Origin: an archaeon
GTDB lineage: Archaea > Asgardarchaeota > Heimdallarchaeia > Hodarchaeales > S146-22
NCBI GenBank assembly: GCA_024276395.1
Contig: JAJRXH010000202.1
Span: 1 to 23,913, forward strand
Length of the DNA: 23,913 nucleotides
Reading direction: 5' to 3'
Positions 9,551 through 22,409 of the stretch are shown here, in pieces. The translations under genes were made by a program, and so were the position numbers. The notes beneath the pieces were generated by a model. That model did no database searches. It was not told where the DNA came from and saw only the letters and a program-made list of their open reading frames with translations. Numbering within the stretch: position 1 is the first letter of the stretch; each line of letters opens with the position of its first letter.

Positions 9551-9619
9551 AAGGGATGTGGCTTTGCATCCGAAGTATGATCATGACGTGAAAAACAAAT
9601 TGAAAGAAGGTGTAAAAGA

Positions 9620-10633
9620 ATGAAAGAAGACGATCATTCCGTCGAAAATTTTGCACGATATGTCCAGGGGTTTTCTACCGAGATTTTAGGAGAAGTATCC
9701 AAAATCATTGTAGGAAAAAATGACATTCTTGAATTACTATTGGTCGCACTACTGGCTAACGGACACGTGCTTCTCGAAGGAGTACCTGGCGTAGCAAAAA
9801 CATTCATGGCACGGACGTTTGCTGGAGTCATGGGATTAGATTTCAAGCGAGTTCAGTTTACCCCAGATCTTCTTCCTAGCGACATCGTCGGTTCCATGAT
9901 TTATAATCAGAAAGAAGGAAAGTTTCAATTCAATCCCGGACCCATTTTTACAAACATCCTACTTGCTGATGAAATCAACAGAGCCCCTCCAAAGACGCAA
10001 TCTGCCCTCTTAGAAGCCATGGCTGAAAGAAGTGTTTCCGTAGAAGGTATCACGCACAAGCTTGACCGCCCGTTCACTGTATTTGCCACACAAAACCCTG
10101 TTGAACAGGAAGGAACTTACATCCTCCCAGAAGCACAATTAGATCGGTTCTTATTCAAGTTAAATGTCACGTACCCAGAAAAGACCGAAGATATTGAAAT
10201 TCTCAATCGCAAGCTAGGATTAAAGGACATTGATGAAATTAAAGTCGATGTCAAAGCTAATAAGGAACAAATCCGCGAAATACAAGATAACATCATCAAC
10301 ATTTATGTGGATCAAAGCATTCTTGAATACATTGCAGAACTTGTCAACAAGGCACGAAAGCATCCATACGTACAATTCGGTGCCTCACCACGCGCTTCCA
10401 TTGCGTTGATGATAGCAAGCCGTCCCCTCGCAGCAATGAAGGGAAGAGCTTACGTGGAACCCGATGACATCAAGGCTCTCTACAAGCCGATTCTCAATCA
10501 TCGTCTCGCCTTAACTCCAGAAGCTGAACTGGCCGGTTATACCTCAGAACAAATTCTAGATGAAATCATCAAAACTACGGAAGTACCCTATTTCGATCCA
10601 AATGAATTACCGGCATTACAACAAGCAGCCTGA
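9620..10633 (+). CDS. moxR: MoxR-family AAA+ ATPase (AAA_3 type)
   Basis: Walker A is GVPGVAKT (nt 9779-9802) and Walker B is ILLADEINRAPPKTQSALLEAM. Sensor-1 is VFATQNP, the ASPRAS arginine region is present, and the 337-aa length is typical. An AAGGTG Shine-Dalgarno sits about 7 nt upstream of the ATG. Confidence 0.93.
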   Translation: MKEDDHSVENFARYVQGFSTEILGEVSKIIVGKNDILELLLVALLANGHVLLEGVPGVAKTFMARTFAGVMGLDFKRVQFTPDLLPSDIVGSMIYNQKEGKFQFNPGPIFTNILLADEINRAPPKTQSALLEAMAERSVSVEGITHKLDRPFTVFATQNPVEQEGTYILPEAQLDRFLFKLNVTYPEKTEDIEILNRKLGLKDIDEIKVDVKANKEQIREIQDNIINIYVDQSILEYIAELVNKARKHPYVQFGASPRASIALMIASRPLAAMKGRAYVEPDDIKALYKPILNHRLALTPEAELAGYTSEQILDEIIKTTEVPYFDPNELPALQQAA

Positions 10634-10677
10634 ACAAAAACCAATGAGAATACCTGAAAGAGTGATTTCTAACCGAA

Positions 10678-12150
10678 ATGACAACCGGGGAAACATACAT
10701 GTCCTCAATTGACGATTTATTCGAAGAAATAGAAGAAGTCATCTCAATTCCGACAAGGAAAGCAAAAAGAAAAAAAATAATAGAATATAATCCAGAAGAT
10801 TTCATTTCACACCTAAGTCTCACGAGACGAGGAATGCTTATCACCATGGTCATCATCATTGACTTCGGACTCTACCTTTCCACCTCCCTCCCTTTTTTCG
10901 GTATCATCCTCATCATTTTTTCCGTCTTGTTTGCTATTGACTATTACTTATTCGTCAAAAATCCACTAGAAAATCTTCTCATCAAGCGACACATCGATCG
11001 AGCTTTGATGTTCGAAGGAGATTACAGCCTCGTGGAAGTTGAGGTCACCAACACGCATCCTACCAAGCCTATTGGTCTTCTAGAGGTAGAAGAGTATTAT
11101 CAGCCAGAAATCAAAGTCTTAACCACGAAGGAAAAACTAACCAAAAGCATGGCATTAGGACCAAAAGAATCTAATTACTTGAGGTATCTCTTTAAAATTG
11201 AACAAATGGGAAAGTACATCATCGGACCAATCAAGATGACTATAAAGGACTTTCTAGGTCTTTTTTCAGTCAACGTGATCGCACCTATTTTCGATGATGT
11301 CATCATCTTTCCTAGAATCGAAGACGCACAACGAATGTTCCAAGTTGCACAACGAAGAAAGTTAGGAAGATTTTTCGACATATTTCGACAAAAAGAAATC
11401 GGTTCTGGGTTAGACTTCTTTGGATTACGTGAATACGAACGAACTGATGATCATCGTGCTATTGACTGGAAAGCCTCTGCTAAAAGAAACATGGATCCTT
11501 TGATGGTACGGATTTATGAAACAGTCAATCCTTTAAACATTCTCATTGCATTAGACGCTGGAAAAAGCATGCTAGTGAGACTTGATAATGGAAAAACTAA
11601 ATATGAGGCAGTTCTCCCCATAGTAGCTTTTCTCATCCTGCTAGGACTATCCACGCGTGACAACGTGGGACTAGCCATCTTCGATTCAGAGGTAACTGCA
11701 TTCTTGAAACCAGCAAACCAACGAAAGGTCTTCTTTGACGCATTAAGACTGTTTGCAATGAGCAACAAAGGTAACAAGACTAGTTATCGACAATTAGCAA
11801 ATTACATCGTTGCTGGGGTAAGAGAACGAACTCTGGTCATCATCGTGACAGACTTGGAAGGAGATGTGGAAGAATTACATGAATGCATCCGAATTTTGAG
11901 GCTAAAAAAGTTTCCCGTTCTATTATTGTATCTAAAAAATGAAGAACTCGAATTTGATGTGCCCTTATCATCATTTGAGGACAAAATTTTCCTAGAAACC
12001 TATCTCGCTCATCGTGCTGCTGATATCATCCGAGAAGTAAGGAAAAAAGGAGTATCCACGATGACACTGAGACGTGAAGATTTCGAGAAACTGACCTTCC
12101 CGGTTACGCTTGAAAGATGGATTTCGTTGGTATCTCAAGCAAGGAGGTAA
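10678..12150 (+). CDS. DUF58 family protein (two N-terminal TM helices plus vWA-like domain), the usual MoxR partner
   Basis: The diagnostic DUF58 motif DFFGLREYERTDDHRAIDWKASAKRNMDPLMVRIYE is present. It is followed by the vWA-like strand LNILIALDAGKSM, a degenerate MIDAS (DxGxS). The N-terminal hydrophobic hairpin is MLITMVIIIDFGLYL / FFGIILIIFSVLFAIDYYLF. An alternative start is the ATG at 10699. Confidence 0.88.
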   Translation: MTTGETYMSSIDDLFEEIEEVISIPTRKAKRKKIIEYNPEDFISHLSLTRRGMLITMVIIIDFGLYLSTSLPFFGIILIIFSVLFAIDYYLFVKNPLENLLIKRHIDRALMFEGDYSLVEVEVTNTHPTKPIGLLEVEEYYQPEIKVLTTKEKLTKSMALGPKESNYLRYLFKIEQMGKYIIGPIKMTIKDFLGLFSVNVIAPIFDDVIIFPRIEDAQRMFQVAQRRKLGRFFDIFRQKEIGSGLDFFGLREYERTDDHRAIDWKASAKRNMDPLMVRIYETVNPLNILIALDAGKSMLVRLDNGKTKYEAVLPIVAFLILLGLSTRDNVGLAIFDSEVTAFLKPANQRKVFFDALRLFAMSNKGNKTSYRQLANYIVAGVRERTLVIIVTDLEGDVEELHECIRILRLKKFPVLLLYLKNEELEFDVPLSSFEDKIFLETYLAHRAADIIREVRKKGVSTMTLRREDFEKLTFPVTLERWISLVSQARR

Positions 12151-12153
12151 GAA

Positions 12154-13950
12154 ATGTTGATGACTATTAAGAAAACAGCAGGATATCGTCCAGCTAGCCG
12201 CAAATTATCTGAGCTACCCTTGTATTTTGAAAGATTACTACCTTTCACGGGAATTTTGAGAGTTGCTTTCATTGATCTGATGATCCTAAGCATGCTCGGC
12301 ATCTTCATTTTCTTCGATTATGCTTCTTTAATAGTTCGAATCACTCGTGGATTAATTCGTCGTGATCTCATTCTTAGGTATTTTTCGTTGAAGGATCAGG
12401 AAATCTTATTAATTCTACTTCTAGTAATTCTATACAATATTAGTAACATTTTTTGGATATTGAAGCCTAAAAAGATTCCGTTTGGTGAAACTTACATTCT
12501 TTTTTCGTTTATTTTCATCATTCTATTCAATGATGGCATCTTGGTACTTCTCAATGCGGACCAATTCCTCCATTACACCCTAGAACACGCACCAATAGAT
12601 TGGATACTATTAAGTTTTCTCATAGGTCTTACTTTTTTCACGATCTGGTTCGAACGTTACGTTAGGAAAAACAGACCGAAGAATATTTTTGATCTTGATC
12701 CGAATAGCATCGTCGAAACACTCAATTTCTTGATTTTTCTTCTCTTTACCTTGTTTCCCTTATTCATATTGCTCTTTCATCCTTTTTACAATCCAAAAGG
12801 TACCATTGTTTTGATAGATATGACCATGAACCTTTTGATTTCTCTTGATCCTTTAGATATCATGGGCACTCTAGATCAATGGTTCTACATTCTTCTAGAT
12901 GGATGGAAAGTTCTCCTCCTACTGGGTACTTACATCATTACCTTTTATCTAATGTTTCGTGCTACTAAGCAGCACGTGCTATCCAAGTTGGGTATGACCA
13001 TTCAAAAAAAGAAAAAAGTTCTTTCAACACGCCAATTCATTCGCGATCAGAAATACAAGCTAGTGGGGCTTGCACTCGTGACGGGATCTCACACGATAAA
13101 AGATCCTTATAGTAGTATTTTATGGATTTCACTTCCTCTCATTTCATTGTTCCTCATTTACAAGGATGAACTAAATCGTTTTCAACTATTTGTACTCACG
13201 ACCATCTTAGCTAGTATCTTTGTAAGTCGATGGATTCTTACCACCAACCTAGATACTGGTTACTATAATTTCTCAATTTTTAGCGTTTCCCTGTTTATTT
13301 CAATAATTGGGCTATTCATCACGTTAGTCTTCATCAGAAGTGGATATTTTGTTAGTATTGGCCTATTTGCAATTGCCATCCTCATTACCTATACCTTTTG
13401 GGACACCTATGAATATCTTTTCATTGCAGCCTTGCTTATCATTTTAGGAATTTTTTGGCTCCAACAACTTCAAAACATCGTCATTCCCTCACAAAAACTT
13501 TGTAACTCAGGAAAAGAGGCAAGAAGTCTTCTAGAGAATGAAGAAATCTTTTGGAGTGGAATACAAGAACGATTTTCATTGTCAGATGACTTGATGAATA
13601 GAATTCAATCCTATGTTTACTCTACACTCCAAAATGATCAAGAAAAAGTTCTCGAAATCATTTATGAGCCAGAAAAACCCTATAATGCAGTCATTTTCAC
13701 GGAACAAACCTTTTATAAGGCATTCCAGCTTGCAATTTCCATTTTAGCACCTCTTTTCGTATTGCCTTTAATCTTAATTTACATTCCCATTCCCTTCTTG
13801 GGACTTTATCATTCATCATCAGCCGGAAATTTCGCCGTTATAGTAATTTTATCGCTATACTTACTATCATTTGTTTTGATTTGGCTTCCTCCCATCCCCA
13901 TTCCCAAGTTTAAGGAAATGGAACTAGAATACAGGAGGTTTAAGCAATAG
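12154..13950 (+). CDS. Polytopic integral membrane protein (598 aa, 10 or more predicted TM helices, one soluble insert near residues 450-530), unknown family
   Basis: A strong AGGAGGT Shine-Dalgarno lies inside the end of the DUF58 gene, 6 nt before the ATG, with a 3-nt intergenic gap. The protein has long runs of hydrophobic segments. It occupies the slot where bacterial MoxR/DUF58 operons often carry a transglutaminase-like membrane protein, but I see no GxC...H...D transglutaminase core and the protein has only one Cys. Confidence 0.8.
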   Translation: MLMTIKKTAGYRPASRKLSELPLYFERLLPFTGILRVAFIDLMILSMLGIFIFFDYASLIVRITRGLIRRDLILRYFSLKDQEILLILLLVILYNISNIFWILKPKKIPFGETYILFSFIFIILFNDGILVLLNADQFLHYTLEHAPIDWILLSFLIGLTFFTIWFERYVRKNRPKNIFDLDPNSIVETLNFLIFLLFTLFPLFILLFHPFYNPKGTIVLIDMTMNLLISLDPLDIMGTLDQWFYILLDGWKVLLLLGTYIITFYLMFRATKQHVLSKLGMTIQKKKKVLSTRQFIRDQKYKLVGLALVTGSHTIKDPYSSILWISLPLISLFLIYKDELNRFQLFVLTTILASIFVSRWILTTNLDTGYYNFSIFSVSLFISIIGLFITLVFIRSGYFVSIGLFAIAILITYTFWDTYEYLFIAALLIILGIFWLQQLQNIVIPSQKLCNSGKEARSLLENEEIFWSGIQERFSLSDDLMNRIQSYVYSTLQNDQEKVLEIIYEPEKPYNAVIFTEQTFYKAFQLAISILAPLFVLPLILIYIPIPFLGLYHSSSAGNFAVIVILSLYLLSFVLIWLPPIPIPKFKEMELEYRRFKQ

Positions 13951-14102: not shown

Positions 14103-16691
14103 ATGGTCAAAGAACGGACAGATAATCAACAAAAAATCATCAAAACGGAAAATGATGAGTTTTCCATCCAAATTACAGTAGGTAAAACGTTTAGGGATCC
14201 TAATACAGGCTTAAATATCGTACTCTGTCCCAAGTGTTTTAACAAGATGTCGTTGTTCCTATGGCAAGGAACAAAAAGATGCTTGAGTTGTGGTCAAGGA
14301 ATTGGAAAAATTGAAGAACTAGAAATTAACTACACGCAACCACAAGTAGGTACCATAATTGAAAATGAATTGCTACGTTCCCAATGGGTAGAGTGCCCGG
14401 TCTGTGGATATAATAACACGCTAACTGCCATTGAAACAAATAAGATATGTTCTTCGTGCTCTGTCATCATTGGAAGCCTTCTCAACCCATCTACTGGTGA
14501 ACTCATCACGCTTGACATCGAAGAGATACTCATTGAGTACGAAAATAAATTTCAGGATGAGGAGAAAACCAGTAATTTACCGTTGCTCCAAATCAGTAAT
14601 GACGAAAAAATACTCCAAGATAGTTTGGCAGAAGGACTATTAGGGTTCTGGGAGGAAAGATGGCAAGTTAAATGCCTGTATTGTGGGTACATGAATGATG
14701 CGTCTTTGGTTAACAATTTCACTAATTTCAAGTGTGAACATTGCTTGCAACCAATTAAATCCCTCAAGTTCGACGAGAAGAGCCCAATCATGAACATTGA
14801 ATTAACTCCCATTGAATGTCCTCAATGCTCATTGGTGTATGAAAATAAAGAGAAATTACTAGAACTCATCGAACAAGAACTCACTTGCCAATGTGAATTC
14901 TCATTATTTGAGTATCTGCGTGATCCCGTCAAGGAAAAGGAATTTTATTCGAGAATGGTAGAATTACAAGTTAAATCCATGGAAGAAATTGAGTCAGATA
15001 GCTCAGAGAGAAAAGATGAAGAAAAATCAAACAAGCGCTTGTGTCCTTCGTGTTTCTCTCTCTATGATCTTGATGTCTTCGAATGCCCCACCTGTGATCT
15101 TTATTTAGATCCTGAAATGGCCAAGGCAGAAGAGCTAGATCCTTACGCCAAAGATTGGGCTTATCCATATACCGTTGATGAATTAGAAAAACTCATTGAA
15201 ATCCCGCCGTATGTGGCACGGAAGATTTATTGCGCAACTTGTGACGCTTACCATGAAAAATACAAGCTTCTCGCGGATAACGTGTTTTCATGTCCCCTTG
15301 ATCTTACTGATCTCACAAAACACAAGAGTTATTGTCAAAATTGCTCAATACAGTATCCCACTAATTACAATTTCTGCATGGAATGCGGGAAACAACTTGA
15401 AATCTTAGAAGTCGAAGTGTACATACCGCCACGGCTAAAAGAAACCACAGCTCCACCCACACCAGAACACGAGCCCAGTCCAATGACGATAAGAATTTTT
15501 TGTCTTGATTGCCAAGAAGAACACGAATATGACCTTGTACCACGATATTGCAAGAAATGTGGAGGGAAAATCGAGAAGAGTATGCATTTTTGTCCCCAAT
15601 GTCAAGTTTATTATCCGGTAACCTACAAGTTCTGTCGAATATGTGGCAAAGAACTAACAGAAAAAGTTCTTCCACAAGCAGATCGAATTACCATTACCGA
15701 AAAAGCCGCGATTTATTGTCATCACTGTCGAAAAAGTCAAACCTATACTTTTGTCCCAGCCGCTTGTTACAATTGTTTCATGCCGTTAGAAGTGAATGAA
15801 CTAAGATATTGTCAAAAATGCAAGATTAATTACCCACGTTTCTATAAATACTGCCAAGAATGTGGAAAACCACTCTCCTTCTCTAGAATTTCCCTACCAA
15901 AGCCATCAAAGTTAAAGAGCGTCCCCATTTATTGTAGTCCATGCCAAGAAACATATTTCTATCAGCATCCAGCAAAATATTGCAAGAAATGTGGACAATA
16001 CAACCGATTACAACCGTTGAGACGATGCCCACAATGTTTAGCCATTCAATCTCCTAATTTTAAATATTGCAAGAATTGTAAAGCGACGACAATAACTTGG
16101 ATTCCAAACCCCTTTGAAGTCAACCCGTCTCTATTAGAGGCATTCACTAAAATTGAACTGGAGAGTACACAACAAACTTCAATGGAAGAACTACAAACAA
16201 TAGAGCATCAAATTCCTCCAACCACCTCTCAACAAATAGAAGTTCCACGACTTACTCCTAGTAGTAGCTCATCTGCTTCAGCAATTCCAATCACTCAAGT
16301 TGACAAAAACCAATCTAAAAAACAAAAGATCGAAGCACTCCCAAGGGATGTTAAGAGTGATGACCAAAAAATCACTGAAAAAGGATTGATTGAAGAACAA
16401 GTAAAGCAATTTTTGGTAGATTATTTGAGAAAAAACAAATGGAAGTTAATCGATCCCGCCAAAATAGGCTTCAAAGTTGATATCATTGCTTCCAAAAGGA
16501 AAAAATTAATCGGCATTCAAGTCTCTAGCAATCCTACTACGGCGATGATGGATGAGCTGCTTTTCACGGGTTTTCCGGGAAAGTGGGCAATCTTTGTATT
16601 AAATAATGATGATGGGCAAGATCTTGGAAGAAATACCTTCCACGTGAAAACGTTGGACGCCTTGAGAAAGATCATCGATTCACTCGTGTAA
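14103..16691 (+). CDS. Multi-zinc-ribbon protein (about 13 CxxC...CxxC units) with Ser/Pro-rich linker and a C-terminal ~100-aa restriction-endonuclease-fold-like domain
   Basis: Cys pairs run from C42 (nt 14226) to C659 (nt 16079). Eleven are complete Cys4 units and two are degenerate (CPQC...CQC and CATC...C). Units such as FCPQCQVYYPVTYKFCRICGKEL, YCQNCSIQYPTNYNFCMECGKQL and YCQKCKINYPRFYKYCQECGKPL match the zinc_ribbon_2/DZR pattern. The start is uncertain: there is no Shine-Dalgarno before ATG 14103, and the frame stays open upstream to nt 13944 (see findings). Confidence 0.85.
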   Translation: MVKERTDNQQKIIKTENDEFSIQITVGKTFRDPNTGLNIVLCPKCFNKMSLFLWQGTKRCLSCGQGIGKIEELEINYTQPQVGTIIENELLRSQWVECPVCGYNNTLTAIETNKICSSCSVIIGSLLNPSTGELITLDIEEILIEYENKFQDEEKTSNLPLLQISNDEKILQDSLAEGLLGFWEERWQVKCLYCGYMNDASLVNNFTNFKCEHCLQPIKSLKFDEKSPIMNIELTPIECPQCSLVYENKEKLLELIEQELTCQCEFSLFEYLRDPVKEKEFYSRMVELQVKSMEEIESDSSERKDEEKSNKRLCPSCFSLYDLDVFECPTCDLYLDPEMAKAEELDPYAKDWAYPYTVDELEKLIEIPPYVARKIYCATCDAYHEKYKLLADNVFSCPLDLTDLTKHKSYCQNCSIQYPTNYNFCMECGKQLEILEVEVYIPPRLKETTAPPTPEHEPSPMTIRIFCLDCQEEHEYDLVPRYCKKCGGKIEKSMHFCPQCQVYYPVTYKFCRICGKELTEKVLPQADRITITEKAAIYCHHCRKSQTYTFVPAACYNCFMPLEVNELRYCQKCKINYPRFYKYCQECGKPLSFSRISLPKPSKLKSVPIYCSPCQETYFYQHPAKYCKKCGQYNRLQPLRRCPQCLAIQSPNFKYCKNCKATTITWIPNPFEVNPSLLEAFTKIELESTQQTSMEELQTIEHQIPPTTSQQIEVPRLTPSSSSSASAIPITQVDKNQSKKQKIEALPRDVKSDDQKITEKGLIEEQVKQFLVDYLRKNKWKLIDPAKIGFKVDIIASKRKKLIGIQVSSNPTTAMMDELLFTGFPGKWAIFVLNNDDGQDLGRNTFHVKTLDALRKIIDSLV
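15231..16079 (+). repeat. Protein-level tandem array: four units, each pairing a type-A zinc ribbon (I(Y/F)CxxC...YCKKCG) with a type-B zinc ribbon ((Y/F)CxxCxxxYPxx(Y/F)K(Y/F)CxxCGKxL)
   Basis: First Cys positions of the A units are residues 377, 467, 539 and 611. First Cys positions of the B units are 411, 497, 570 and 642. Units 2-4 are spaced 72-73 residues apart (about 216 nt). The DNA copies are diverged, so this is not a recent duplication. Confidence 0.75.
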
Positions 16692-16704: not shown

Positions 16705-18381
16705 ATGGACGAACGTAAAAAGATGAAAATATGGATATTCATCATCTTGATATGCTCTAGTTCAATCATGCTAACCCATTTTTCTATAATGATGTCAACA
16801 CAGAATCGATACTTGCTTAATTTCAAGCAAAATGAAATGATAACAAGTCACTCTCATAAAAAAGATTATAGTCATTTAGTATCTCAAAAAACTCCCTTTC
16901 ATCAAAAAACGCCATTCATTAAGCAAGTTCAGGAGATCGGTACACTCTCTGTACATCCTTATCATCTCGAGGCCATTAATGATAGCCTACAAATTGAATC
17001 GAATTTTATCTTTAATGCGACATTAGATCGAACAATCTATGGAAGTGGTAGTATCATTCACATTAAAGGGTATCTAGGTTACGCTAACAATACGCCCATT
17101 GCCGGTAATGAAGTCAACATCACCTTTCTTGATGCAGTTAACAACAAGTTGACTAGCACCACGGAAAACACGCGTTTGGACGGAAGTTGGAACGTGGATT
17201 ATCAACTTTCTTCCTCAACTCCCACTGGAGGCTATCACGTAGAAGTTTGGACGAAAGTAAATGAATCGATCTTGTCCCTATCATTAACCTATACTGTTGT
17301 CGCACGCAGTTCAATTACTTTCATCTCGAATTCAACTCTTCCTAATCCACCCATTCACTATTTCCCCTTTTCAATCATCGTCAAGTTGAGTTCTCAAGAA
17401 ATAAGCGATGCTAAAATTATATTCACGACTGACGAAGGTATTACATGGAAACAAGCAACTCTAGTAAGTTCCACAGAAGACCCAGCAACATTCACCGCAT
17501 TGCTAGGACCTTTTAACAAGAGCATAAATAAATTACAATGGTTTGCTGTCATCATTGATAGTGATGGAAAAATAAAGGAATCTCAAATACAGGTAATCTC
17601 TTTTCGTCCGTTTAACGCTTCCATCACGATAGATATCACCTCAACTCCCTACACGCACGTGACTCACGTTTGGAATGTAACAATCAATACTAATTTACCA
17701 GAAGATTACTACTACATAAAAGTGAAAGCAGCCTTTCTTGGTAATGAGCAAGAGTTTTACTTGCCTACTTGGAAAGTAAGAGCTGGTTTTTATCAGTTCT
17801 CTTTCAACACGACAATGACTGGAACATGGACTTTTACTGCGGAATTACGATCGACATTCAATAATTCAATTTTAAAACAACAATCAGAAACCACCTATCT
17901 GTCCTTAATGGACATTCATCCACCTCGAATCCAAAATGTCGAGTATGATAAAAGTAGCATCTTCAATGATTTGCCAGTTGTTGTTACCATCATCATCGAA
18001 GAAAATCATACTTACCATGATTTACTAGTTTTCGTGAAATACCGTCAAGGTACCATTGAAGAAGGTCCTACTACCCAATGGTCAGTCAAAACCCTATTAT
18101 CGCCTGGACAGAATAGCCAAGATACCGTGAAAATTCAATGGGAAATCCCAGTTACATTAAAAGAGGGAGATTTATTTCAATTTCAAGTGATAGCAATTGA
18201 TGGATTCAATAACACTGCATCTTCAAGACTTTATACCATTTCTTATCCCTTAACAAGGGAAGAATCCACTAATTTTCCCTTCTACATGTTCTTAATCACA
18301 TTGATGATGTTTTTTTTCAATAAGTTCAAAAGAACTCGAATGCTGAAAAATGAGAAGATTCTTAATCAAGGAGATGTATGA
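16705..18381 (+). CDS. Type-I membrane surface protein with Ig-like/beta-sandwich domains, N-terminal signal/anchor and C-terminal TM helix
   Basis: A GGTGAG Shine-Dalgarno precedes the ATG. The N-terminal hydrophobic segment is IWIFIILICSSSIMLTHF and the C-terminal TM is FPFYMFLITLMMFFF, followed by the basic tail NKFKRTRMLK. The ectodomain has more than 10 N-x-S/T sequons and a GNEVNITF...RLDGSWNVDYQL motif of the same type as in the giant protein. Confidence 0.85.
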   Translation: MDERKKMKIWIFIILICSSSIMLTHFSIMMSTQNRYLLNFKQNEMITSHSHKKDYSHLVSQKTPFHQKTPFIKQVQEIGTLSVHPYHLEAINDSLQIESNFIFNATLDRTIYGSGSIIHIKGYLGYANNTPIAGNEVNITFLDAVNNKLTSTTENTRLDGSWNVDYQLSSSTPTGGYHVEVWTKVNESILSLSLTYTVVARSSITFISNSTLPNPPIHYFPFSIIVKLSSQEISDAKIIFTTDEGITWKQATLVSSTEDPATFTALLGPFNKSINKLQWFAVIIDSDGKIKESQIQVISFRPFNASITIDITSTPYTHVTHVWNVTINTNLPEDYYYIKVKAAFLGNEQEFYLPTWKVRAGFYQFSFNTTMTGTWTFTAELRSTFNNSILKQQSETTYLSLMDIHPPRIQNVEYDKSSIFNDLPVVVTIIIEENHTYHDLLVFVKYRQGTIEEGPTTQWSVKTLLSPGQNSQDTVKIQWEIPVTLKEGDLFQFQVIAIDGFNNTASSRLYTISYPLTREESTNFPFYMFLITLMMFFFNKFKRTRMLKNEKILNQGDV

Positions 18382-18821
18382 CCATGGGAAACGTGATAAA
18401 TTTAAATTTGCATTCCTACTTTCAAGATGTCTCTAATAAATGGCTGGAACTACTTAACACGTTGAGCTTGCAAGTACCTAACCACCCACAACTAAATCAC
18501 CTGATGACTCTTTATGAAGATCTCGAACAAATTAAGTTCGAGGTTCAGTATCTTCCATCACCCTCATCATCACTCCTAAAAAGACAAAAAAATATGTATG
18601 AAGTCCTCATGCTATTAAGTGCCGTGTTATGTCAAAAAATCCTTAGGATCATCGTGAACTTACATGACCAAGTAAGTCTTCATCAAAAATACCTAGAAGT
18701 GGAAGAAATTGAAGAAGTTACAAGACTCATAAGACAGGTAGAGCAAGTAAATCGAATGCTCCTAAGACTCCTCCAAGGTGAAGATCTCAACACAACCCTC
18801 ATCAAGAAAATGGAACAATAA
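18378..18821 (+). CDS. Small all-helical/coiled-coil cytoplasmic protein (147 aa), unknown family, possibly an ESCRT-associated adaptor
   Basis: The ATG overlaps the upstream stop (ATGA at 18378-18381) and is preceded by AGGAGAT. Heptad-like Leu/Glu/Gln-rich sequence is present (EVEEIEEVTRLIRQVEQVNRMLLRLLQ). The TAA at 18819-18821 is in the same frame as the next gene. No family was recognised by eye. Confidence 0.65.
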   Translation: MTMGNVINLNLHSYFQDVSNKWLELLNTLSLQVPNHPQLNHLMTLYEDLEQIKFEVQYLPSPSSSLLKRQKNMYEVLMLLSAVLCQKILRIIVNLHDQVSLHQKYLEVEEIEEVTRLIRQVEQVNRMLLRLLQGEDLNTTLIKKMEQ

Positions 18822-18833
18822 CATGCTAAAGCA

Positions 18834-19388
18834 TTGGAACAATTAAAGACAAAGCTGCTAGGAATTGAAGAAGATGTCGAGGAAATACGGATTCTCGAAC
18901 AGCAACAAAAAATACATAAGGGAAGATTTCTCGGAAAGAAGAAATTCATCAAGCAATTAGGCGACATCATTCTTCAGGAATCTGATGAACTCTCAAAGAA
19001 AAGTGGCGGTATTGTTGAATTACAGAGGTTGTATCGCCACTTAAAAAGAAAATATGACATTGATATGGATGTTACAGATGTACTCGATGCTTGCGAATTT
19101 CTGTTAGCAAAAAACGTCATCGATGCCATCATCGAATTACCAGGTTCAGTTATGAAAATCATCTCTTTTTCTCCGATGGCACTTGATGCTGAAATACGAC
19201 AATTACTATTTTTAGCAAGTTCCCACGGCGGCGTGCTAACTAGAGAAGAAATCACGCTAAGCACGGACTGGGATCAAGCTCGGATAGATCGTCTCATGGA
19301 TCTGATGGAACGAAGAGGTTTTGCCATACGAGAAAAATCCTTCGAGGGAGAAAAGTGGTACTTCCCAGCATTCTATGAAAATAAGTAA
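18834..19388 (+). CDS. vps22: ESCRT-II Vps22/Vps36-like protein (EAP30 domain, tandem winged helices)
   Basis: KKSGGIVELQRLYRHLKRK...DVTDVLDACEFLLAKNVIDAIIELPGSVMKIISFSP forms the first winged helix. SHGGVLTREEITLSTDWDQARIDRLMDLMERRGFAIREKSFEGEKWYFPAFY forms the second. Both follow the pattern I recall for eukaryotic Vps22/SNF8: GG(I/L)xxLxxL, V(S/T)xxD(L/V)xxA, VTxxE(I)...W...RA...L, and aromatic-aromatic-x-P-A-(L/F) at the C-terminus. The only usable start is TTG 18834. There is no in-frame ATG until codon ~77 and no Shine-Dalgarno. Confidence 0.78.
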   Translation: MEQLKTKLLGIEEDVEEIRILEQQQKIHKGRFLGKKKFIKQLGDIILQESDELSKKSGGIVELQRLYRHLKRKYDIDMDVTDVLDACEFLLAKNVIDAIIELPGSVMKIISFSPMALDAEIRQLLFLASSHGGVLTREEITLSTDWDQARIDRLMDLMERRGFAIREKSFEGEKWYFPAFYENK

Positions 19389-19433: not shown

Positions 19434-20084
19434 ATGTCAAAGCAATTAGAACTAAAGGATGTTATCAAGCCTATCAGTGGAGCAGCAAGCAAAAAATCTC
19501 TGTTTCGGAAAAAAAAGGTCATCTCATCACAACGAATCCGAGTAGGTGAAGAATCAATCATCACGCGCATCACATTTCAAAATGACAAAAATGCCCCAGA
19601 TTTCTTTCTCGTGACGCCTCATGAACACGCTGTCATTATTATGGATGGTGTACCATTCGAAATAAAACAAGAAGGAGCATTCGAAATCATCAAAAAGAAG
19701 AAATGGCTTCAAATCGAGATTATATGGCTAAAAAAGAATGAAATAAACATAAAATGGGGCTCTGGAGCCTTCATTACAAGCGACAGAAAAGAATTCGGAT
19801 GTTATGGCATTGCAAGAGTTCAAATTCTCCAACCTAGGCATTTCATGCTGAGAATTTTAGGTGGTGGAACTTTCTCATTTACTGACGAAGATCTTCGAAA
19901 CTTCATCCGAGCGGATCTCCTCAACACCCTTCGTAACAGTTTTTCAAGGTTTTCCATCGCCCAAATTCGGGCACAGAATAAATTACTTCAAATTCAAGTT
20001 AAGGCCAACCTCTCCCCAACCCTACGACGTTGGGGACTTGAATTGCTGGATTTTCAAATAATAGGGTTTAAATTCCAAGAATAA
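19434..20084 (+). CDS. SPFH-superfamily protein of the YdjI/Band_7_1 (COG4260-like) type, lacking the usual C-terminal zinc ribbon
   Basis: An AAGGTG Shine-Dalgarno lies about 8 nt upstream. The following match my recollection of the Band_7_1 profile: VTPHEHAVIIMDGVPFEIKQEGAFEI, IEIIWLKKNEINIKWGSGAFITSD, GCYGIARVQILQPRHFMLRILGGGTFSFTDEDLRNFIRADLLNTL and WGLELLDFQIIGFKF. That profile reads (E)xxAV..dG...pG.y.l; vyFv..re..n.kWGT; lrafG.y...v.dP..F; GiEl..f.i..i. Confidence 0.62.
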   Translation: MSKQLELKDVIKPISGAASKKSLFRKKKVISSQRIRVGEESIITRITFQNDKNAPDFFLVTPHEHAVIIMDGVPFEIKQEGAFEIIKKKKWLQIEIIWLKKNEINIKWGSGAFITSDRKEFGCYGIARVQILQPRHFMLRILGGGTFSFTDEDLRNFIRADLLNTLRNSFSRFSIAQIRAQNKLLQIQVKANLSPTLRRWGLELLDFQIIGFKFQE

Positions 20085-20141: not shown

Positions 20142-21197
20142 ATGGCCGAACATAATCAAGACATTGATGAAAAAATCATGTTAAACGATGATCTACTAGA
20201 AATTAAAAGACTCCTTAAAAAAATACCAAGGTCACTTTTCTTGTTGTTAGAGAACGTGATCATCTTCATTAGCGTGTTGTTCTTACCTTTATTTCAAATG
20301 ATATATAACATCCAAGGTACAATTATTCTTGTTTCACTGTCAGGTAAAATTCTCGGGGGATTTCCCTATATCATTGCAATCATCTCTACCTACTTGATCT
20401 TCTTGTGTAGTATATATGAAATCAAGCGAAGAAAACTCAAGAATGTCAGACAAGACCGTAAACGACGTCACTTGATTGTCAACTCCTTGGATTCTCTTGC
20501 AAGCTATTCGCTGGTAATGACAATTAGCCACGTTTTACTTCTCATCTTCCTCATTCTCTTCTATCATTCCTACCTAATTAATTATGATAAAACAATAGCT
20601 AACGACCCATTGAGATTCATTCCACCACAAGTGTTATATCATAATTTACCAGATCCAACGCCATCCAGTTATTCTTGGTTCTTGAAGATATATATTGGTA
20701 GCTACATCTTAATTTCAGCTGCCTTGTTATCTTTTTTCCACGAAATTATAGTTTTTTTCCGGATTCGGAAAATAAAGAAGAAAATCTTGCCAACCATTGA
20801 TTCACTGCTGGATTTGGAGAAAAAAGCAACACCAACCGCTGAACACGAAGAAAAATCTGACATGGAATCAATTACTTATGAGCTAGAGGACGACATGGAA
20901 AAAATATCAATAGATTCTATCATTTCTACAGAAAAACAAGAACCATTACTGACATCATCAGATTCCGAGATGAGCACCACGATAGAGGCATCTTCAACAA
21001 TGGAACAATCTCAAGAAGCTATGACAGCAGCTGCATCACCATTCAGAGCAATAAAATCTTCTATTGAACCTCCAATCCGTTCAACCGGATATCTTAGGAA
21101 TTTTAAACCTCCAAAATTGAGACCGTGCAGTAATTGTAACACTAAAATTCCAATGTCTGCGAAATTTTGCTACGAATGCGGTATCCCTGCATCTTAA
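20142..21197 (+). CDS. Multi-pass membrane protein with acidic/Ser-rich linker and C-terminal zinc ribbon
   Basis: An AGGTGA Shine-Dalgarno lies 8 nt upstream. There are about 5-6 hydrophobic helices (e.g. LFLLLENVIIFISVLFLPLF, YIIAIISTYLIFLCSIY, VMTISHVLLLIFLILFY, YILISAALLSFFHEIIVFF). The C-terminal CSNCNTKIPMSAKFCYECGIP is the same zinc_ribbon_2 pattern as in the 862-aa protein. Confidence 0.82.
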   Translation: MAEHNQDIDEKIMLNDDLLEIKRLLKKIPRSLFLLLENVIIFISVLFLPLFQMIYNIQGTIILVSLSGKILGGFPYIIAIISTYLIFLCSIYEIKRRKLKNVRQDRKRRHLIVNSLDSLASYSLVMTISHVLLLIFLILFYHSYLINYDKTIANDPLRFIPPQVLYHNLPDPTPSSYSWFLKIYIGSYILISAALLSFFHEIIVFFRIRKIKKKILPTIDSLLDLEKKATPTAEHEEKSDMESITYELEDDMEKISIDSIISTEKQEPLLTSSDSEMSTTIEASSTMEQSQEAMTAAASPFRAIKSSIEPPIRSTGYLRNFKPPKLRPCSNCNTKIPMSAKFCYECGIPAS

Positions 21198-21260: not shown

Positions 21261-22409
21261 TTATTTTTCCATCAATTTTACATGATTTCCTTCGATTAAT
21301 AGAGCAATAAGCTCATTGGAAAGGCCGTGCAAGAGATGTTCTAATACCACGAATTGATCAACTTGTAACGTGACCGTCGCATCGCAGTAAAAACCTTGCA
21401 AGAGGGGAAGATTAGCCAAGGGGCTTACATCAATGACCTTTAGGCGATTTTCGCCTAACGTCAAGTATTCTAAAGACAGGCAATGCTCAATTGGGCTCAT
21501 GTCTATCTGTTCCAACTCATTTCGTGCCAATTTCAGAACTCGTAAGCGATGACACTCGGCCAGGGGAGAAAGATCTATCCGAGAAAGTCGATTGAAAGAA
21601 AGATCCAATTCTTTTAATCGCCTACAAGAAGCCAATGGAAGCAGATCAACTTGTTGAAGCTCATTCTCTTGTAATCCTAGATACGTGAGATTTGAGCAAT
21701 GACGAAGCGGTGAAAGATCCACGAATTCCAAATGATTCTGATACAAGCCAAGACTGCTTAAATGAATACAACGAGACAAGGGTGTCAAGTCCATTTCAGA
21801 GACGGCAATATCATGTAATCCCAGGACCGCCAAGCTTGGAAAGAGCTTGAAAGAAGAAAGATCCAGTTCACCCAATGGATTTTCCGAAAGATGCAAGAAG
21901 GCCATGTTCTCCTTGTGGCCAAGAACTTCAAGATTTACCTCAGAGAGACCATTTTTACGCAAGCTCAAGTATTCTAATAGATGACATGAACGTAATGGCG
22001 AAAGATCAATATGTTCCAATTGATTTTCGGAAAGATAAAGTTGTCGAACCTCTTTTAGATTCGATAAAGAACTCAAATCAACTTCGACTAGCTGGTTTTT
22101 CCACAATTTCAAGCTCTTGAGACGGGGACAATGACGGAGCGATGCAAGGTCAACATCTTCAAGCATGTTTTCGGAAAGATCAAGCTCAATGAGGTTCGAA
22201 CAATGGCGGAGGGGAGATAAATCGATCGATCGCAGTCCAACCTTCCATAACTTGAGATGTTGCACCCGTGGACAATGCTGCAGGAATGAAAGATCTATTT
22301 CACTTAAATTCGTTCCATAAAATGAAAGATAAGTCACGTCACGAGCAACTTTTCTTACCTGTCGCGTGCCATCCCAATTTTTCCCCATTACCAATACTTT
22401 CTCCATCAT
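21261..22409 (-). CDS. Leucine-rich-repeat protein (about 13 tandem 24-residue LRRs)
   Basis: The repeating unit is DLSPLxxCxxLxxLxLxxNxLxx(V/I), e.g. DLSPLRHCSNLIELDLSENMLEDV and DLSPLRHCSNLTYLGLQENELQQV. An in-frame TAG lies immediately upstream of the ATGATG start. The gene is convergent with the + strand block. Confidence 0.92.
   Translation of the reverse strand: MMEKVLVMGKNWDGTRQVRKVARDVTYLSFYGTNLSEIDLSFLQHCPRVQHLKLWKVGLRSIDLSPLRHCSNLIELDLSENMLEDVDLASLRHCPRLKSLKLWKNQLVEVDLSSLSNLKEVRQLYLSENQLEHIDLSPLRSCHLLEYLSLRKNGLSEVNLEVLGHKENMAFLHLSENPLGELDLSSFKLFPSLAVLGLHDIAVSEMDLTPLSRCIHLSSLGLYQNHLEFVDLSPLRHCSNLTYLGLQENELQQVDLLPLASCRRLKELDLSFNRLSRIDLSPLAECHRLRVLKLARNELEQIDMSPIEHCLSLEYLTLGENRLKVIDVSPLANLPLLQGFYCDATVTLQVDQFVVLEHLLHGLSNELIALLIEGNHVKLMEK
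21375..22334 (-). repeat. 72-nt periodic coding repeat (LRR array)
   Basis: About 13 consecutive 24-codon units are read directly from the translation. Cys is conserved at repeat position 8 in 10 of the 13 full units. Confidence 0.8.

Follow-up and report, generated by a model that had tools for sequence, protein, structure and literature searches.

Asgard archaea have so far been viewed as carrying a single Vps22/36-like gene per genome, the product of which homodimerises (PMC9192718). Hatano et al. reported no Vps36 in Asgard archaea and proposed an 'as-yet undiscovered' partner for the Odin Vps22 (PMC9192718), and the N-terminus of Asgard Vps22 has been described as a short helical or steadiness-box region (PMC11188069). 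Contextual links between SPFH proteins and the ESCRT machinery have been described in Methanobacteriales, for YdjI-PspA in Bacillus and for mammalian flotillins and ESCRT-0/I (PMC11188069). In the Bacillus case, YdjI anchors the ESCRT-III-like PspA and serves as a membrane platform for a protein of the ESCRT superfamily (PMC11188069). The 'Meth_adaptin' loci of Methanobacteriales (Makarova et al. 2024) are built on Vps4 and ESCRT-III, which adaptin-appendage and GOLD domains accompany, and are non-Asgard. Here we analyze a 23913-nt stretch of Hodarchaeales DNA (the window), which is essentially the entire deposited contig (23914 nt), and compare its ESCRT-II-like gene with these systems.

An interrupted long-form Vps22 gene

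An earlier note on this DNA had placed an ESCRT-II (EAP30) gene at 18834-19388 and called for a check against the EAP30 profile. The match is significant: the open reading frame (ORF) scores 37 bits against Pfam EAP30 (PF04157), above the gathering cut-off of 26.8, over profile positions 82-218 of 219 and ORF residues 32-167, and its relatives score 32.6-66 bits on the same profile. An NCBIfam search returned nothing useful. The best PDB sequence matches of the ORF are human SNF8/Vps22 (3cuq_A and 2zme_A, E of about 2e-6). The gene is therefore real, but its boundaries had been misplaced, as 18834-19388 is the back half of a longer gene. The features of the region are as follows.

16705-18381, forward strand: MG2-domain surface protein with an N-terminal hydrophobic segment (Pfam MG2, 43.5 bits)
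18378-19388, forward strand: whole long-form Vps22-like gene (EAP30 family), 336 codons, interrupted in frame by TAA at codon 148
18378-18818, forward strand (18378-18821 including the stop): N-terminal half, ORF of 147 aa, helical bundle
18819-18821, forward strand: in-frame TAA splitting the gene, aligned against L001 DNA
18834-19388, forward strand: C-terminal half with the EAP30 core, ORF of 184 aa (Pfam EAP30)
19434-20084, forward strand: SPFH/Band_7 partner of 216 aa without a transmembrane segment (Pfam Band_7)
20142-21197, forward strand: membrane protein, about four transmembrane segments and, at the C-terminus, a zinc ribbon (Zn_Ribbon_1/DZR at residues 327-348)

The ORFs 18378-18821 and 18834-19388 share one reading frame and are parted by a single TAA. 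The second starts with a TTG that has no Shine-Dalgarno-like motif, and EAP30 profile positions 1-81 are missing from it. Motifs resembling GGAGG or GGTG precede the ATG starts at 9620, 12154, 18378, 19434 and 20142; the start at 18378, whose ATG shares bases with the stop codon of the MG2-domain gene before it (ATGA), is preceded by AAGGAGATGT. Two relatives, P0002 (72% identical; from assembly GCA_054014235.1, annotated with 306 aa, its ORF coding for 333 aa) and P0108 (69% identical; 337 aa), are continuous proteins colinear with both window ORFs. At the stop site the DNA of P0002 reads AAA (Lys) where the window reads TAA, the aligned codons being GAA CAA TAA CAT in the window versus GAA CGA AAA TAC in the close relative L001, and the position is occupied by lysine in six of seven aligned homologues and by glycine in P0007. 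The TTG without a Shine-Dalgarno motif, the truncated profile match, the common frame and the uninterrupted relatives therefore identify one 336-codon gene with an in-frame stop: 18378-19388 is a single long-form ESCRT-II gene of the Vps22/EAP30 family whose coding sequence is broken by one TAA at 18819-18821. This shows that the two CDSs in the NCBI annotation, of 145 aa (P0123, the N-terminal ORF) and 184 aa, are pieces of one gene; likewise, the 'helical adaptor' previously listed as a separate neighbour is the N-terminal half of the Vps22-like gene, in the same frame. Recoding of the stop codon was rejected because TAA ends seven of the 12 other large ORFs listed.

Predicted fold of the protein

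The intact protein is predicted to comprise an N-terminal four-helix bundle of about 150 aa, a flexible or disordered linker, a helix and two winged helices. The C-terminal half of the window gene holds the remainder of a helix, the disordered linker, the long helix and the two winged-helix domains. In the AF2 model of P0108 (pLDDT 83), which represents the 69%-identical relative and not the split product of the window, helix 188-210 is followed by two tandem winged helices, and the stop site maps to a helical segment (helices 140-149 and 151-161) that precedes the disordered linker. A profile of the long form searched against the PDB gave SNF8/Vps22 as the top match (E 4e-22), followed by yeast Vps22 (2e-10) and Vps36 (2.5e-5), with the next unrelated entry at E >0.05. 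Using Foldseek, the P0108 model matched human Vps22 (3cuq_A) with E 7.6e-7 and human Vps36 (2zme_B) with 3e-5, and superposed on yeast Vps22 (1u5t_A) with an rmsd of 2.4 A over 149 columns.

Foldseek also lists MarR/Fur-type winged helices at E 0.2-0.6, the second winged helix has a weak match to MarR_2 (E 8e-4, 19.9 bits, below the cut-off of 27), and one homologue carries the source annotation 'predicted transcriptional regulator'. These observations would fit a MarR-like protein whose tandem winged helices bind DNA and regulate the SPFH gene, rather than an ESCRT-like adaptor. However, the Vps22 matches are better by orders of magnitude in both sequence and structure and span the helix together with both winged helices. 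Moreover, the winged helices of ESCRT-II bind protein, and a regulator is not expected to stay translationally coupled to its target over such deep divergence. We consider a DNA-binding regulator very unlikely and retain the assignment to Vps22.

The N-terminal half is predicted to form four long helices (residues 11-32, 39-57, 64-100 and 108-132) and a short one (139-146), with a pLDDT of 88.5 and a pTM of 0.83 for the AF2 model of this ORF. Comparison of the bundle with PDB folds gave no significant match (best E 0.15); all entries retrieved were generic helical bundles, apolipoprotein E and designed proteins among them. No Vps28 or steadiness-box match was found in Pfam, and a weak Pfam match to VHS (E 0.039) was unsupported and rejected. 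In an iterative HMM search the N-terminal ORF proved homologous to the N-termini of seven other proteins (P0003, P0004, P0005, P0109, P0110, P0028 and P0075), and its identity to long-form N-termini is 25-35%; the same type of search detected no N-terminal homology to the window protein in P0007 and P0009.

Gene context of long and short forms

A search of all large ORFs with Pfam found no Vps25, Snf7, Vps4 or ubiquitin-system gene in the window, and phmmer with Hodarchaeota Vps25/Vps4/Snf7 seeds gave no match among window ORFs of at least 50 aa, in agreement with the claim that canonical ESCRT genes are missing from this stretch. In the syntenic relative L001, on a 90.8-kb contig, the 10 kb to each side are free of ESCRT genes, and the other long-form loci have no Vps25, Vps4 or Snf7 within about 10 kb. 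Neither Snf7 nor PspA was matched in the window or in any long-form locus. As a positive control, the same methods detected Vps25, Vps4 and two Snf7 genes at the short Vps22 loci L011 and L012, and L041, another short Vps22 locus, has Vps25 and Vps4 as well as a partial Snf7 ORF where the contig ends; Vps22 thus sits with Vps25, Vps4 and Snf7 in two Hodarchaeota short-form lineages. The window protein has 182 residues before the winged-helix core versus about 90 in the canonical short forms of about 240 aa, and resembles these forms neither in size nor in clustering with Vps25, Snf7, Vps4, Vps28 or Vps23.

As the window is the entire 23.9-kb contig and the gene lies about 4.5 kb from its right end, it could in principle be an ordinary Vps22 at the edge of a canonical cluster, with Vps25, ESCRT-III and Vps4 just past the contig end. 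This would leave unexplained why ESCRT genes are absent around L001 and the other long-form loci when the same methods find them beside short Vps22, and why the architecture differs, with about 180 aa rather than about 90 aa before the winged helices. We regard such an edge as highly improbable; the non-canonical neighbourhood is shared by L001 and every long-form locus examined and is not an effect of where the contig ends.

The other genes around the long form are less constant. An SPFH protein and a zinc-ribbon membrane protein do follow the gene, as had been reported, with Band_7 at 19434-20084 and the transmembrane/zinc-ribbon protein at 20142-21197, and a check of flanking-gene conservation separated the two. 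The protein at 20142-21197 has an orthologue only in L001 (35% identity). The MG2-domain gene, the 'glycoprotein' of the earlier note, has an L001 orthologue at 41% identity and is absent upstream of the long EAP30 genes of all other lineages. Since the MG2-domain, zinc-ribbon and MoxR/DUF58 genes are conserved only in this close relative, they are lineage-specific neighbours and not partners.

Genes of the ubiquitin system lie near the long form in other lineages. In loci of the P0004 type, a block of E1, Ub-like, E2 and JAB genes is found 3-7 kb downstream (16 complete GTDB loci, and L007/L008), and the L042 locus carries UFC1-like E2, JAB and ThiF genes; E1, E2, ubiquitin and JAB genes accompany the long form in genomes labelled Hodarchaeota or Heimdallarchaeota. 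The long form and its SPFH partner are therefore not necessarily divorced from the ubiquitin/ESCRT theme.

The SPFH partner

The protein encoded directly downstream of the window gene matches Band_7 (39.3 bits, cut-off 23.6) and Band_7_1 (30.1 bits, cut-off 24) and contains no hydrophobic segment. To place this pair, relatives were gathered by exhaustive HMMER search, and GTDB genomes were scanned with a four-sequence alignment (A7), the nine-sequence alignment A3 being too divergent for pattern design; P0003 was left out of the gene-context survey. A GTDB genome scan with the single protein P0002 as query gave no match, and among GTDB species genomes the best match to the window protein is 28-29% identical. 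The long form measures 328-386 aa across loci. A Band_7/SPFH gene without transmembrane segments lies directly downstream of it in 19 of 19 GTDB reference-genome loci, from species genomes labelled Hodarchaeota, Heimdallarchaeota, Hermodarchaeota or Promethearchaeota, and in eight further lineages. The pair was seen in the window and in the L001, P0005/P0109/P0110, P0004, P0007, P0024, P0048 and P0044 loci; the P0007 locus, from a Promethearchaeota MAG, has a zinc ribbon fused to its SPFH protein, and at the P0048 locus the long form occurs in two tandem copies. The complete chromosomes CP070760.1, CP070695.1 and CP070665.1 likewise encode the long form together with SPFH. By contrast, no SPFH neighbour was present at 11 short-form loci (L011, L012 and nine GTDB loci of 243-250 aa). 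The spacing between the EAP30 and SPFH genes ranges from a 7-nt overlap to a 58-nt gap, which suggests co-transcription and often translational coupling.

The window SPFH protein is 67% identical to its counterpart in L001, 33% to that in L007 and 31% to that in L002, and the SPFH proteins diverge in step with their EAP30 partners. Those of the window (216 aa) and L001 (220 aa) stop right after the SPFH domain without a C-terminal coiled coil, whereas those of other lineages reach 251-523 aa with longer C-terminal extensions, a long charged helical tail being evident at sizes of at least 295 aa. Among PDB sequences, flotillin-2 is the best, albeit weak, match of the full-length L007 partner (E 3e-4). 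The window copy thus lacks the extended coiled coil that, together with the SPFH domain, would mark a flotillin-like protein capable of cage or basket assembly.

The earlier proposal that this gene is a divergent paralogue, or that it has unrecognised partners, can now be narrowed. On locus-by-locus comparison, the long form is a distinct set of Asgard Vps22 paralogues, paired with SPFH without exception in the loci examined; a single clade is not claimed. A neighbour-joining tree of the winged-helix region, built as the clade test, placed the SPFH-linked forms together in only 13 of 200 bootstraps, and a second tree gave no resolution. The long forms may therefore represent several lineages, or the winged-helix domain may be too short to resolve them. 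As to partners, the idea holds for the SPFH gene, which follows directly in all lineages, and fails for the other neighbours.

Status of the stop codon

We then considered what the TAA could mean for the module in this genome. It may have been disabled by a recent nonsense mutation, it could yield two polypeptides through termination and reinitiation at the TTG four codons downstream, or the gene may in reality be intact and the TAA a base-call or consensus error. For a real nonsense mutation, a conserved lysine codon is replaced by TAA, the only start of the downstream ORF is a TTG lacking a Shine-Dalgarno-like motif, and the SPFH partner is also reduced in the window lineage. At most the 147-aa bundle would then be made, and the locus would have no ESCRT-II-like function. 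However, this is the only lesion in 1 kb, translation could mechanistically resume 12 nt further on, an error in the consensus or in base calling could account for the stop, and the reduced SPFH protein occurs also in L001, where the EAP30 gene is intact. In addition, the two halves, at 64% and 72% amino-acid identity with pN of 0.19 and 0.17 (pS >0.78, synonymous sites saturated), are better conserved than most neighbouring genes, that is, as much as intact neighbours or more. We therefore treat a pseudogene as a tentative possibility.

An artefact of assembly or sequencing, in which the true codon is AAA (Lys) and the gene is intact, appears to us no more and no less tentative. The window differs from the codon of its relative by one base, colinearity and conservation are otherwise perfect, and the sequence is a MAG consensus. 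On the other hand, substitution errors are rare in short-read consensus assemblies, the NCBI annotation keeps two CDSs, and no independent copy of the strain was found for comparison: neither relatives of this lineage nor the exact sequence flanking the stop, in either version of the base, turned up when metagenomes were scanned. With its SPFH coiled-coil tail lost and a stop in its EAP30 gene, the module may be decaying in the window lineage.

Discussion

The gene and family described here, taken together with a mechanism in which the long form docks on its SPFH partner, form the explanation that we favour as fairly probable. The SPFH protein would oligomerise into a scaffold of the flotillin or stomatin kind on the cytoplasmic side of the membrane, and the long Vps22-like protein would dock on it, probably through its extra N-terminal bundle. 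The winged-helix pair may then offer an ESCRT-II-like adaptor surface for Vps25/ESCRT-III or for cargo carrying ubiquitin-like modifications, giving a module for sorting or repair at membrane microdomains that would run alongside the canonical ESCRT pathway. The roles of both the bundle and the winged helices are inferred from gene order and eukaryotic ESCRT-II.

With canonical Asgard and eukaryotic Vps22 (SNF8/EAP30), the long form shares the helix and two winged helices as well as its best sequence and structure matches, to which it adds about 90 N-terminal residues as a helical bundle. Canonical Vps22 lies beside Vps25/Vps4/Snf7, whereas the long form is never found there and always beside SPFH, and its window copy carries a stop. 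Vps36 and the long form have in common that each is a second paralogue in the Vps22 family and has gained a module at the N-terminus, and the tandem long pair of L042 recalls a heterodimeric stalk. It is tempting to speculate that the long form is a Vps36-like second counterpart in the ESCRT-II stalk, forming a heterodimer with short Vps22 or with a tandem long copy (L042), and tethers ESCRT-II to SPFH microdomains of the flotillin type close to the ubiquitin machinery. If true, this would amount to a flotillin/ESCRT route of sorting that predates eukaryotes and is conserved in Hodarchaeales, the Asgard group placed nearest to eukaryotes by the cited literature. We judge this extension of the SPFH-docked module unlikely. 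The added module of Vps36 is a GLUE/PH domain, in contrast to the all-helical N-terminus of the long form, which does not identify as Vps36, and Vps36 is matched far less well than Vps22 (2.5e-5 versus 4e-22 by profile, 3e-5 versus 7.6e-7 by Foldseek).

Among the SPFH-linked systems, the 'Meth_adaptin' loci share with the long-form module the coupling of an ESCRT-family component to an SPFH protein with a coiled coil and sometimes a zinc ribbon; unlike them, the long-form module has a Vps22 paralogue as its sole ESCRT-family member and is Asgard-wide. In the Bacillus subtilis YdjG/H/I-PspA system, the Band_7_1-type SPFH protein YdjI occurs with small zinc-ribbon/membrane proteins, which is reminiscent, in arrangement at least, of the window, where SPFH is followed by a membrane/zinc-ribbon protein. 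The long-form loci have neither PspA nor ESCRT-III, the SPFH partner being ESCRT-II-like instead. Like mammalian flotillins, the partner SPFH proteins have no transmembrane segments and, in most lineages, an SPFH domain with a long coiled coil, and flotillin-2 is the best PDB match of the L007 partner. This similarity is weak (E 3e-4), however, the window copy has no coiled coil, and flotillins are linked to ESCRT-0/I, not ESCRT-II.

Recent imaging of a cultured Heimdallarchaeion has revealed basket-like structures of SPFH type on the inner side of its membrane (bioRxiv 10.1101/2025.11.06.686947), and the SPFH partner may thus have a visible cellular correlate. A widely conserved and architecturally distinct putative second paralogue challenges the view of a single Vps22/36-like protein in Asgard archaea, and it does not follow from an 'EAP30 domain' alone that a protein belongs to the canonical ESCRT pathway. 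Together, the long form and its SPFH protein are a testable candidate for an ESCRT-II-type adaptor link to membrane scaffolds before eukaryotes.

An ESCRT-II-family gene split by one stop codon

The open reading frame (ORF) at 18834-19388 (protein P0001) carries an ESCRT-II-family domain. It matches PF04157 (EAP30/Vps36) with 37 bits against a Pfam gathering cut-off of 26.8, covering profile positions 82-218 of 219, and its closest solved structures are those of human SNF8/Vps22 (3cuq_A, 2zme_A; E ~2e-6), which bears out the EAP30 assignment of the earlier note. That note had also seen no canonical ESCRT or ubiquitin genes nearby, and this stands: Pfam identified no Vps25, Snf7, Vps4 or ubiquitin-system gene among the large ORFs of the window, and phmmer with Hodarchaeota Vps25, Vps4 and Snf7 seeds found no match among all window ORFs of at least 50 aa. 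The deposited contig with P0001 is 23914 nt long and the window is all of it.

Gene content of the window
In 27-13950, plus strand: giant surface protein, >2680 aa, running into the contig start, with many N-glycosylation sequons and weak MG2/MG4 matches
In 27-13950, plus strand, after the giant surface protein: DUF4350, MoxR AAA+ ATPase, DUF58, 598-aa polytopic membrane protein
14103-16691, plus strand: 862-aa protein with many zinc ribbons (double zinc ribbons, DZR 71 bits)
16705-18381, plus strand: MG2-domain surface protein
18378-18821, plus strand: upstream 147-aa ORF, EAP30-related
18834-19388, plus strand: EAP30 ORF, 184 aa, TTG start, PF04157
19434-20084, plus strand: Band_7/SPFH protein
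20142-21197, plus strand: membrane protein with C-terminal zinc ribbon
21261-22409, minus strand: LRR protein, 382 aa, between the membrane/zinc-ribbon and methyltransferase genes
Minus strand: methyltransferase

The boundaries 18834-19388 proved to be wrong. The upstream ORF at 18378-18821 is in frame with the EAP30 ORF, from whose TTG it is parted by one TAA (18819-18821) and three sense codons; both ORFs are spanned by the single protein P0002 (306 aa annotated, 333 aa as an ORF), the closest relative, which is 72% identical to the window over the C-terminal part. At the junction, MEQ*HAKALEQL in the window aligns with MERKYAKSLEQL in P0002, and the DNA alignment places TAA against AAA. A further relative, P0108 (337 aa, 69% identity), is likewise uninterrupted, and the stop-site residue in remoter full-length homologues (22-35% identity) is K in six of seven and G in P0007. 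Compared with L001, the locus of P0002, the two halves show 64% and 72% amino acid identity and pN values of 0.19 and 0.17 with synonymous sites saturated, a conservation exceeding that of most neighbouring genes. No Shine-Dalgarno-like motif lies upstream of the TTG at 18834; GGAGG/GGTG-like motifs precede the ATG starts at 9620, 12154, 18378, 19434 and 20142. Stop-codon recoding was ruled out: TAA is an ordinary terminator in the window, ending 7 of the 12 other large ORFs listed with start sites. We therefore regard 18378-19388 as a single gene of 336 codons carrying one lesion; NCBI annotates it as two CDSs (P0123, 145 aa, and P0001, 184 aa). What had been taken for a separate "helical adaptor" is the N-terminal half of the same gene.

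A recent nonsense mutation, reinitiation across a tolerated split, or an assembly error could each account for the lesion; a search of the JGI metagenome collection turned up no further copy of the strain. The module in this genome may be inactive owing to the stop codon. At the 5' end, the MG2-protein stop and the Vps22-like start share bases (ATGA, 18378-18381), which suggests translational coupling of the two genes; this is not conserved, L001 having a 58-139 nt gap instead.

Long forms add an N-terminal bundle to a Vps22-type fold

An exhaustive HMMER search with P0002 over 1.84 billion representatives returned 106 relatives in three architectural classes, set by the length ahead of the winged helices.

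Architectural classes of the relatives
Class 1: ~90 aa before the winged helices; ~240 aa in total
Class 2: ~150-260 aa before the winged helices; ~300-410 aa in total
Class 3: ~600-650 aa before the winged helices; ~770 aa in total

The source names of the relatives are Asgard (Heimdall-, Hod-, Loki/Prometh-, Hel-, Odin-, Baldr-, Sif- and Njordarchaeia, among others). One long-form record, RLI44292.1 of the P0043 cluster, bears the name 'Candidatus Bathyarchaeota archaeon', which could mean an Asgard contig binned wrongly, the conclusion of Hatano et al. (PMC9192718) on comparable records, or a true occurrence outside Asgard. The window lineage is absent from the GTDB r232 species set and the JGI metagenome collection, its EAP30 protein reaching at best 28-29% identity to any GTDB genome, and its sole close relatives are P0002 (GCA_054014235.1) and P0108/P0111.

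We modelled P0108 with AlphaFold2 (19-sequence alignment, mean pLDDT 83). The model has helices at 12-33, 40-58, 65-103, 109-133 and 140-161, followed by a disordered linker (165-186), a long helix (188-210) and two winged-helix domains. In Foldseek searches against the PDB the best match was human Vps22 (3cuq_A, E 7.6e-7), followed by human Vps36 (2zme_B, 3e-5, with further Vps36 chains to 1e-2) and yeast Vps22 (1u5t_A, 3.5e-5, rmsd 2.4 Å over 149 columns); Vps25 reached an E of only 0.23. A profile built from nine long-form sequences matched SNF8 (4e-22), yeast Vps22 (2e-10) and Vps36 (2.5e-5). The N-terminal ORF of the window is predicted to form a bundle of four long helices and a short one (pLDDT 88.5, pTM 0.83), for which Foldseek returned no informative structural relative (generic bundles, best E 0.15), and the stop codon falls in a helical segment just past this bundle, ahead of the linker. 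In predicted architecture, the long forms join an extra N-terminal bundle to a Vps22-type fold. Homologues of the window's N-terminal domain form the N-termini of the long forms P0003, P0004, P0028, P0075, P0005, P0109 and P0110; no homology to it was detectable in the N-termini of P0007 and P0009.

Every long form examined is paired with an SPFH gene

Genomic context was inspected for every locatable long-form type. The long-form gene adjoins an SPFH gene without exception in the loci examined, often overlapping it or lying a few nt away, and Vps25, ESCRT-III and Vps4 are absent near the pairs.

Gene order at long-form loci
P0002 (72% to window), L001: DUF4350, MoxR, DUF58, membrane protein, zinc-ribbon protein, MG2, EAP30, Band_7 (220 aa), membrane/zinc-ribbon protein, methyltransferase; fully syntenic with the window
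P0109, P0005, P0110 ('Hodarchaeales', 'Odinarchaeota' MAGs), L002, L003, L005/L006: Ras/Arf-type GTPase (345-374 aa), EAP30 (345-348 aa), Band_7 (~301 aa)
P0004, L007/L008: EAP30 (333 aa), Band_7 (295 aa)
P0007 (Promethearchaeota MAG): EAP30 (386 aa), zinc-ribbon-Band_7 fusion (523 aa)
P0024, L009/L010: EAP30 (344 aa), Band_7 (251 aa)
P0048, L042 (590-4359): two tandem long EAP30 genes (348 and 346 aa), Band_7 (483 aa)
P0044, L043: EAP30 (378 aa), Band_7 (437 aa)

A GTDB scan with one genome per species returned 29 loci. All 19 long-form loci, three of them on complete chromosomes (CP070760.1, CP070695.1, CP070665.1), have a long EAP30 ORF (328-350 aa) followed by an SPFH ORF (294-300 aa) at a spacing of -7 to +11 nt. 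No SPFH gene was found within the flanks analysed for the nine short-form loci (243-250 aa), nor at the remaining locus, L040, where a 605-aa form is encoded along with an incomplete EAP30 ORF. The positive control was P0148, a short form of 239 aa ('Hodarchaeota archaeon') that adjoins Vps25 (PF05871), Vps4 (MIT, AAA, Vps4_C) and two Snf7 genes; the short form in L041 has Vps25 and Vps4 close by, together with an incomplete Snf7 ORF where the contig ends.

The SPFH partners are homologous to one another, and their divergence parallels that of the adjacent EAP30 proteins, as expected from joint inheritance as a pair: SPFH and EAP30 identities to the window are 67% and 72% for L001, 33% and 32% for L007, and 31% and ~23-26% for L002. 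None contains a hydrophobic segment, and among solved structures a full-length partner matches flotillin-2 best by sequence (E 3e-4), then stomatin and HflK. Partners outside the window lineage (251-523 aa) are extended at the C-terminus, and in those of 295 aa or more a long charged helical tail can be seen; the window and L001 copies (216-220 aa; 19434-20084 and L001 11027-11689) end right after the SPFH domain. A separate membrane/zinc-ribbon protein follows the short SPFH gene in the window lineage, and at the P0007 locus zinc ribbon and SPFH form one fusion protein.

Other neighbours vary between lineages

The earlier note had placed the gene between a surface glycoprotein and an SPFH/zinc-ribbon membrane pair. 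The MG2 protein, zinc-ribbon proteins and MoxR/DUF58 operon are common to the window and L001 only. The operon-like giant-surface-protein/DUF4350/MoxR/DUF58 block (27-13950) is kept in L001, and a GIFT/DUF4350 domain also occurs in L009, in a 1260-aa divergent neighbour of the pair, where the domain is fused to UFL1/DDRGK-like winged helices. The 862-aa zinc-ribbon protein (14103-16691) has a ~120-aa C-terminal region without a Pfam match, and its L001 orthologue is 48% identical. In L001 the methyltransferase gene directly follows the membrane/zinc-ribbon gene; the missing LRR gene thus reflects an insertion or loss specific to one lineage.

Ubiquitin-like conjugation genes neighbour the module in several lineages, as they often do canonical Asgard ESCRT genes, but not in the window lineage. 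The P0004-type block reads eIF2-alpha, Nop10 and GNAT; long EAP30 and SPFH; PCI/winged-helix protein, ThiF-type E1, ubiquitin-like protein and unknown ORF; UQ_con E2, JAB and unknown ORF; then two Arf-like GTPases. Sixteen of the 19 GTDB loci have the whole block, contig ends cutting the other three, as do L007/L008, and the block is seen in L007 and L013-L031 (e.g. L016 8090-20132) in genomes labelled Hodarchaeota or Heimdallarchaeota. In L042 a UFC1-like E2, JAB and ThiF adjoin the pair, and its tandem long EAP30 genes could encode a heterodimeric stalk analogous to Vps22/Vps36. Directly upstream of the pair, L002 (6800-7912), L003 (4218-5342) and L005 (4236-5273) encode a Ras/Arf/Roc-type GTPase (345-374 aa) that has a long C-terminal extension; in L002 a LAGLIDADG endonuclease ORF is inserted between GTPase and pair.

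Paralogue status and proposed mechanism

In a neighbour-joining tree of the ~150-residue winged-helix region, the window groups with P0108, P0002 and P0003 in 178 of 200 bootstraps and this group with P0004 in 117; a union of all SPFH-linked forms was not supported (13/200), and adding GTDB sequences left the deep branches without resolution. It is therefore predicted architecture, N-terminal homology (four of seven long-form types) and the invariant SPFH pairing, not the tree, that argue for a distinct paralogue. Long and short forms are each found among MAGs labelled Hodarchaeota or Hodarchaeales. The earlier proposal of a paralogue or unrecognised partners is partly supported: the long form is a paralogue of its own whose conserved partner, SPFH, is not a canonical one, and most neighbours are incidental.

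That ESCRT-II paralogues vary in number has been noted (Makarova et al. 2024, PMC11188069), and the neighbourhood table of the same study includes two EAP30 genes, one solitary, in Heimdall AB_125; SPFH is discussed there only for a non-Asgard system. Hatano et al. (PMC9192718) found no Vps36 and suggested an undiscovered partner for Odin Vps22. A cultured Heimdallarchaeion has SPFH-like baskets on the inner membrane face and two coiled-coil SPFH proteins (bioRxiv 10.1101/2025.11.06.686947), a 2025 preprint that draws no link to ESCRT-II. We found no description of the long-form/SPFH pair in the full-text literature searched, the coverage of which is incomplete, so that an earlier description is possible.

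The long-form/SPFH pair very probably constitutes a functional unit. For its mechanism we tentatively suggest, at distinctly lower confidence, that flotillin- or stomatin-like oligomers of SPFH might form a scaffold at the cytoplasmic side of the membrane and be bound by the long Vps22-like protein, plausibly via the N-terminal bundle because this is the feature that sets the SPFH-linked forms apart, and that the winged helices would then offer an ESCRT-II-like docking surface to downstream factors or ubiquitin-like-modified cargo. Precedents include SPFH proteins in Methanobacteriales ESCRT loci, the anchoring of PspA by B. subtilis YdjI and flotillin-1 at the ESCRT-0/I step (all PMC11188069). 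The weight of the result is tempered by the broken gene copy of the window, by a mechanism that we infer and by paralogues already being in the literature; it is the family-level association of long-form Vps22-like proteins with SPFH partners that carries it.
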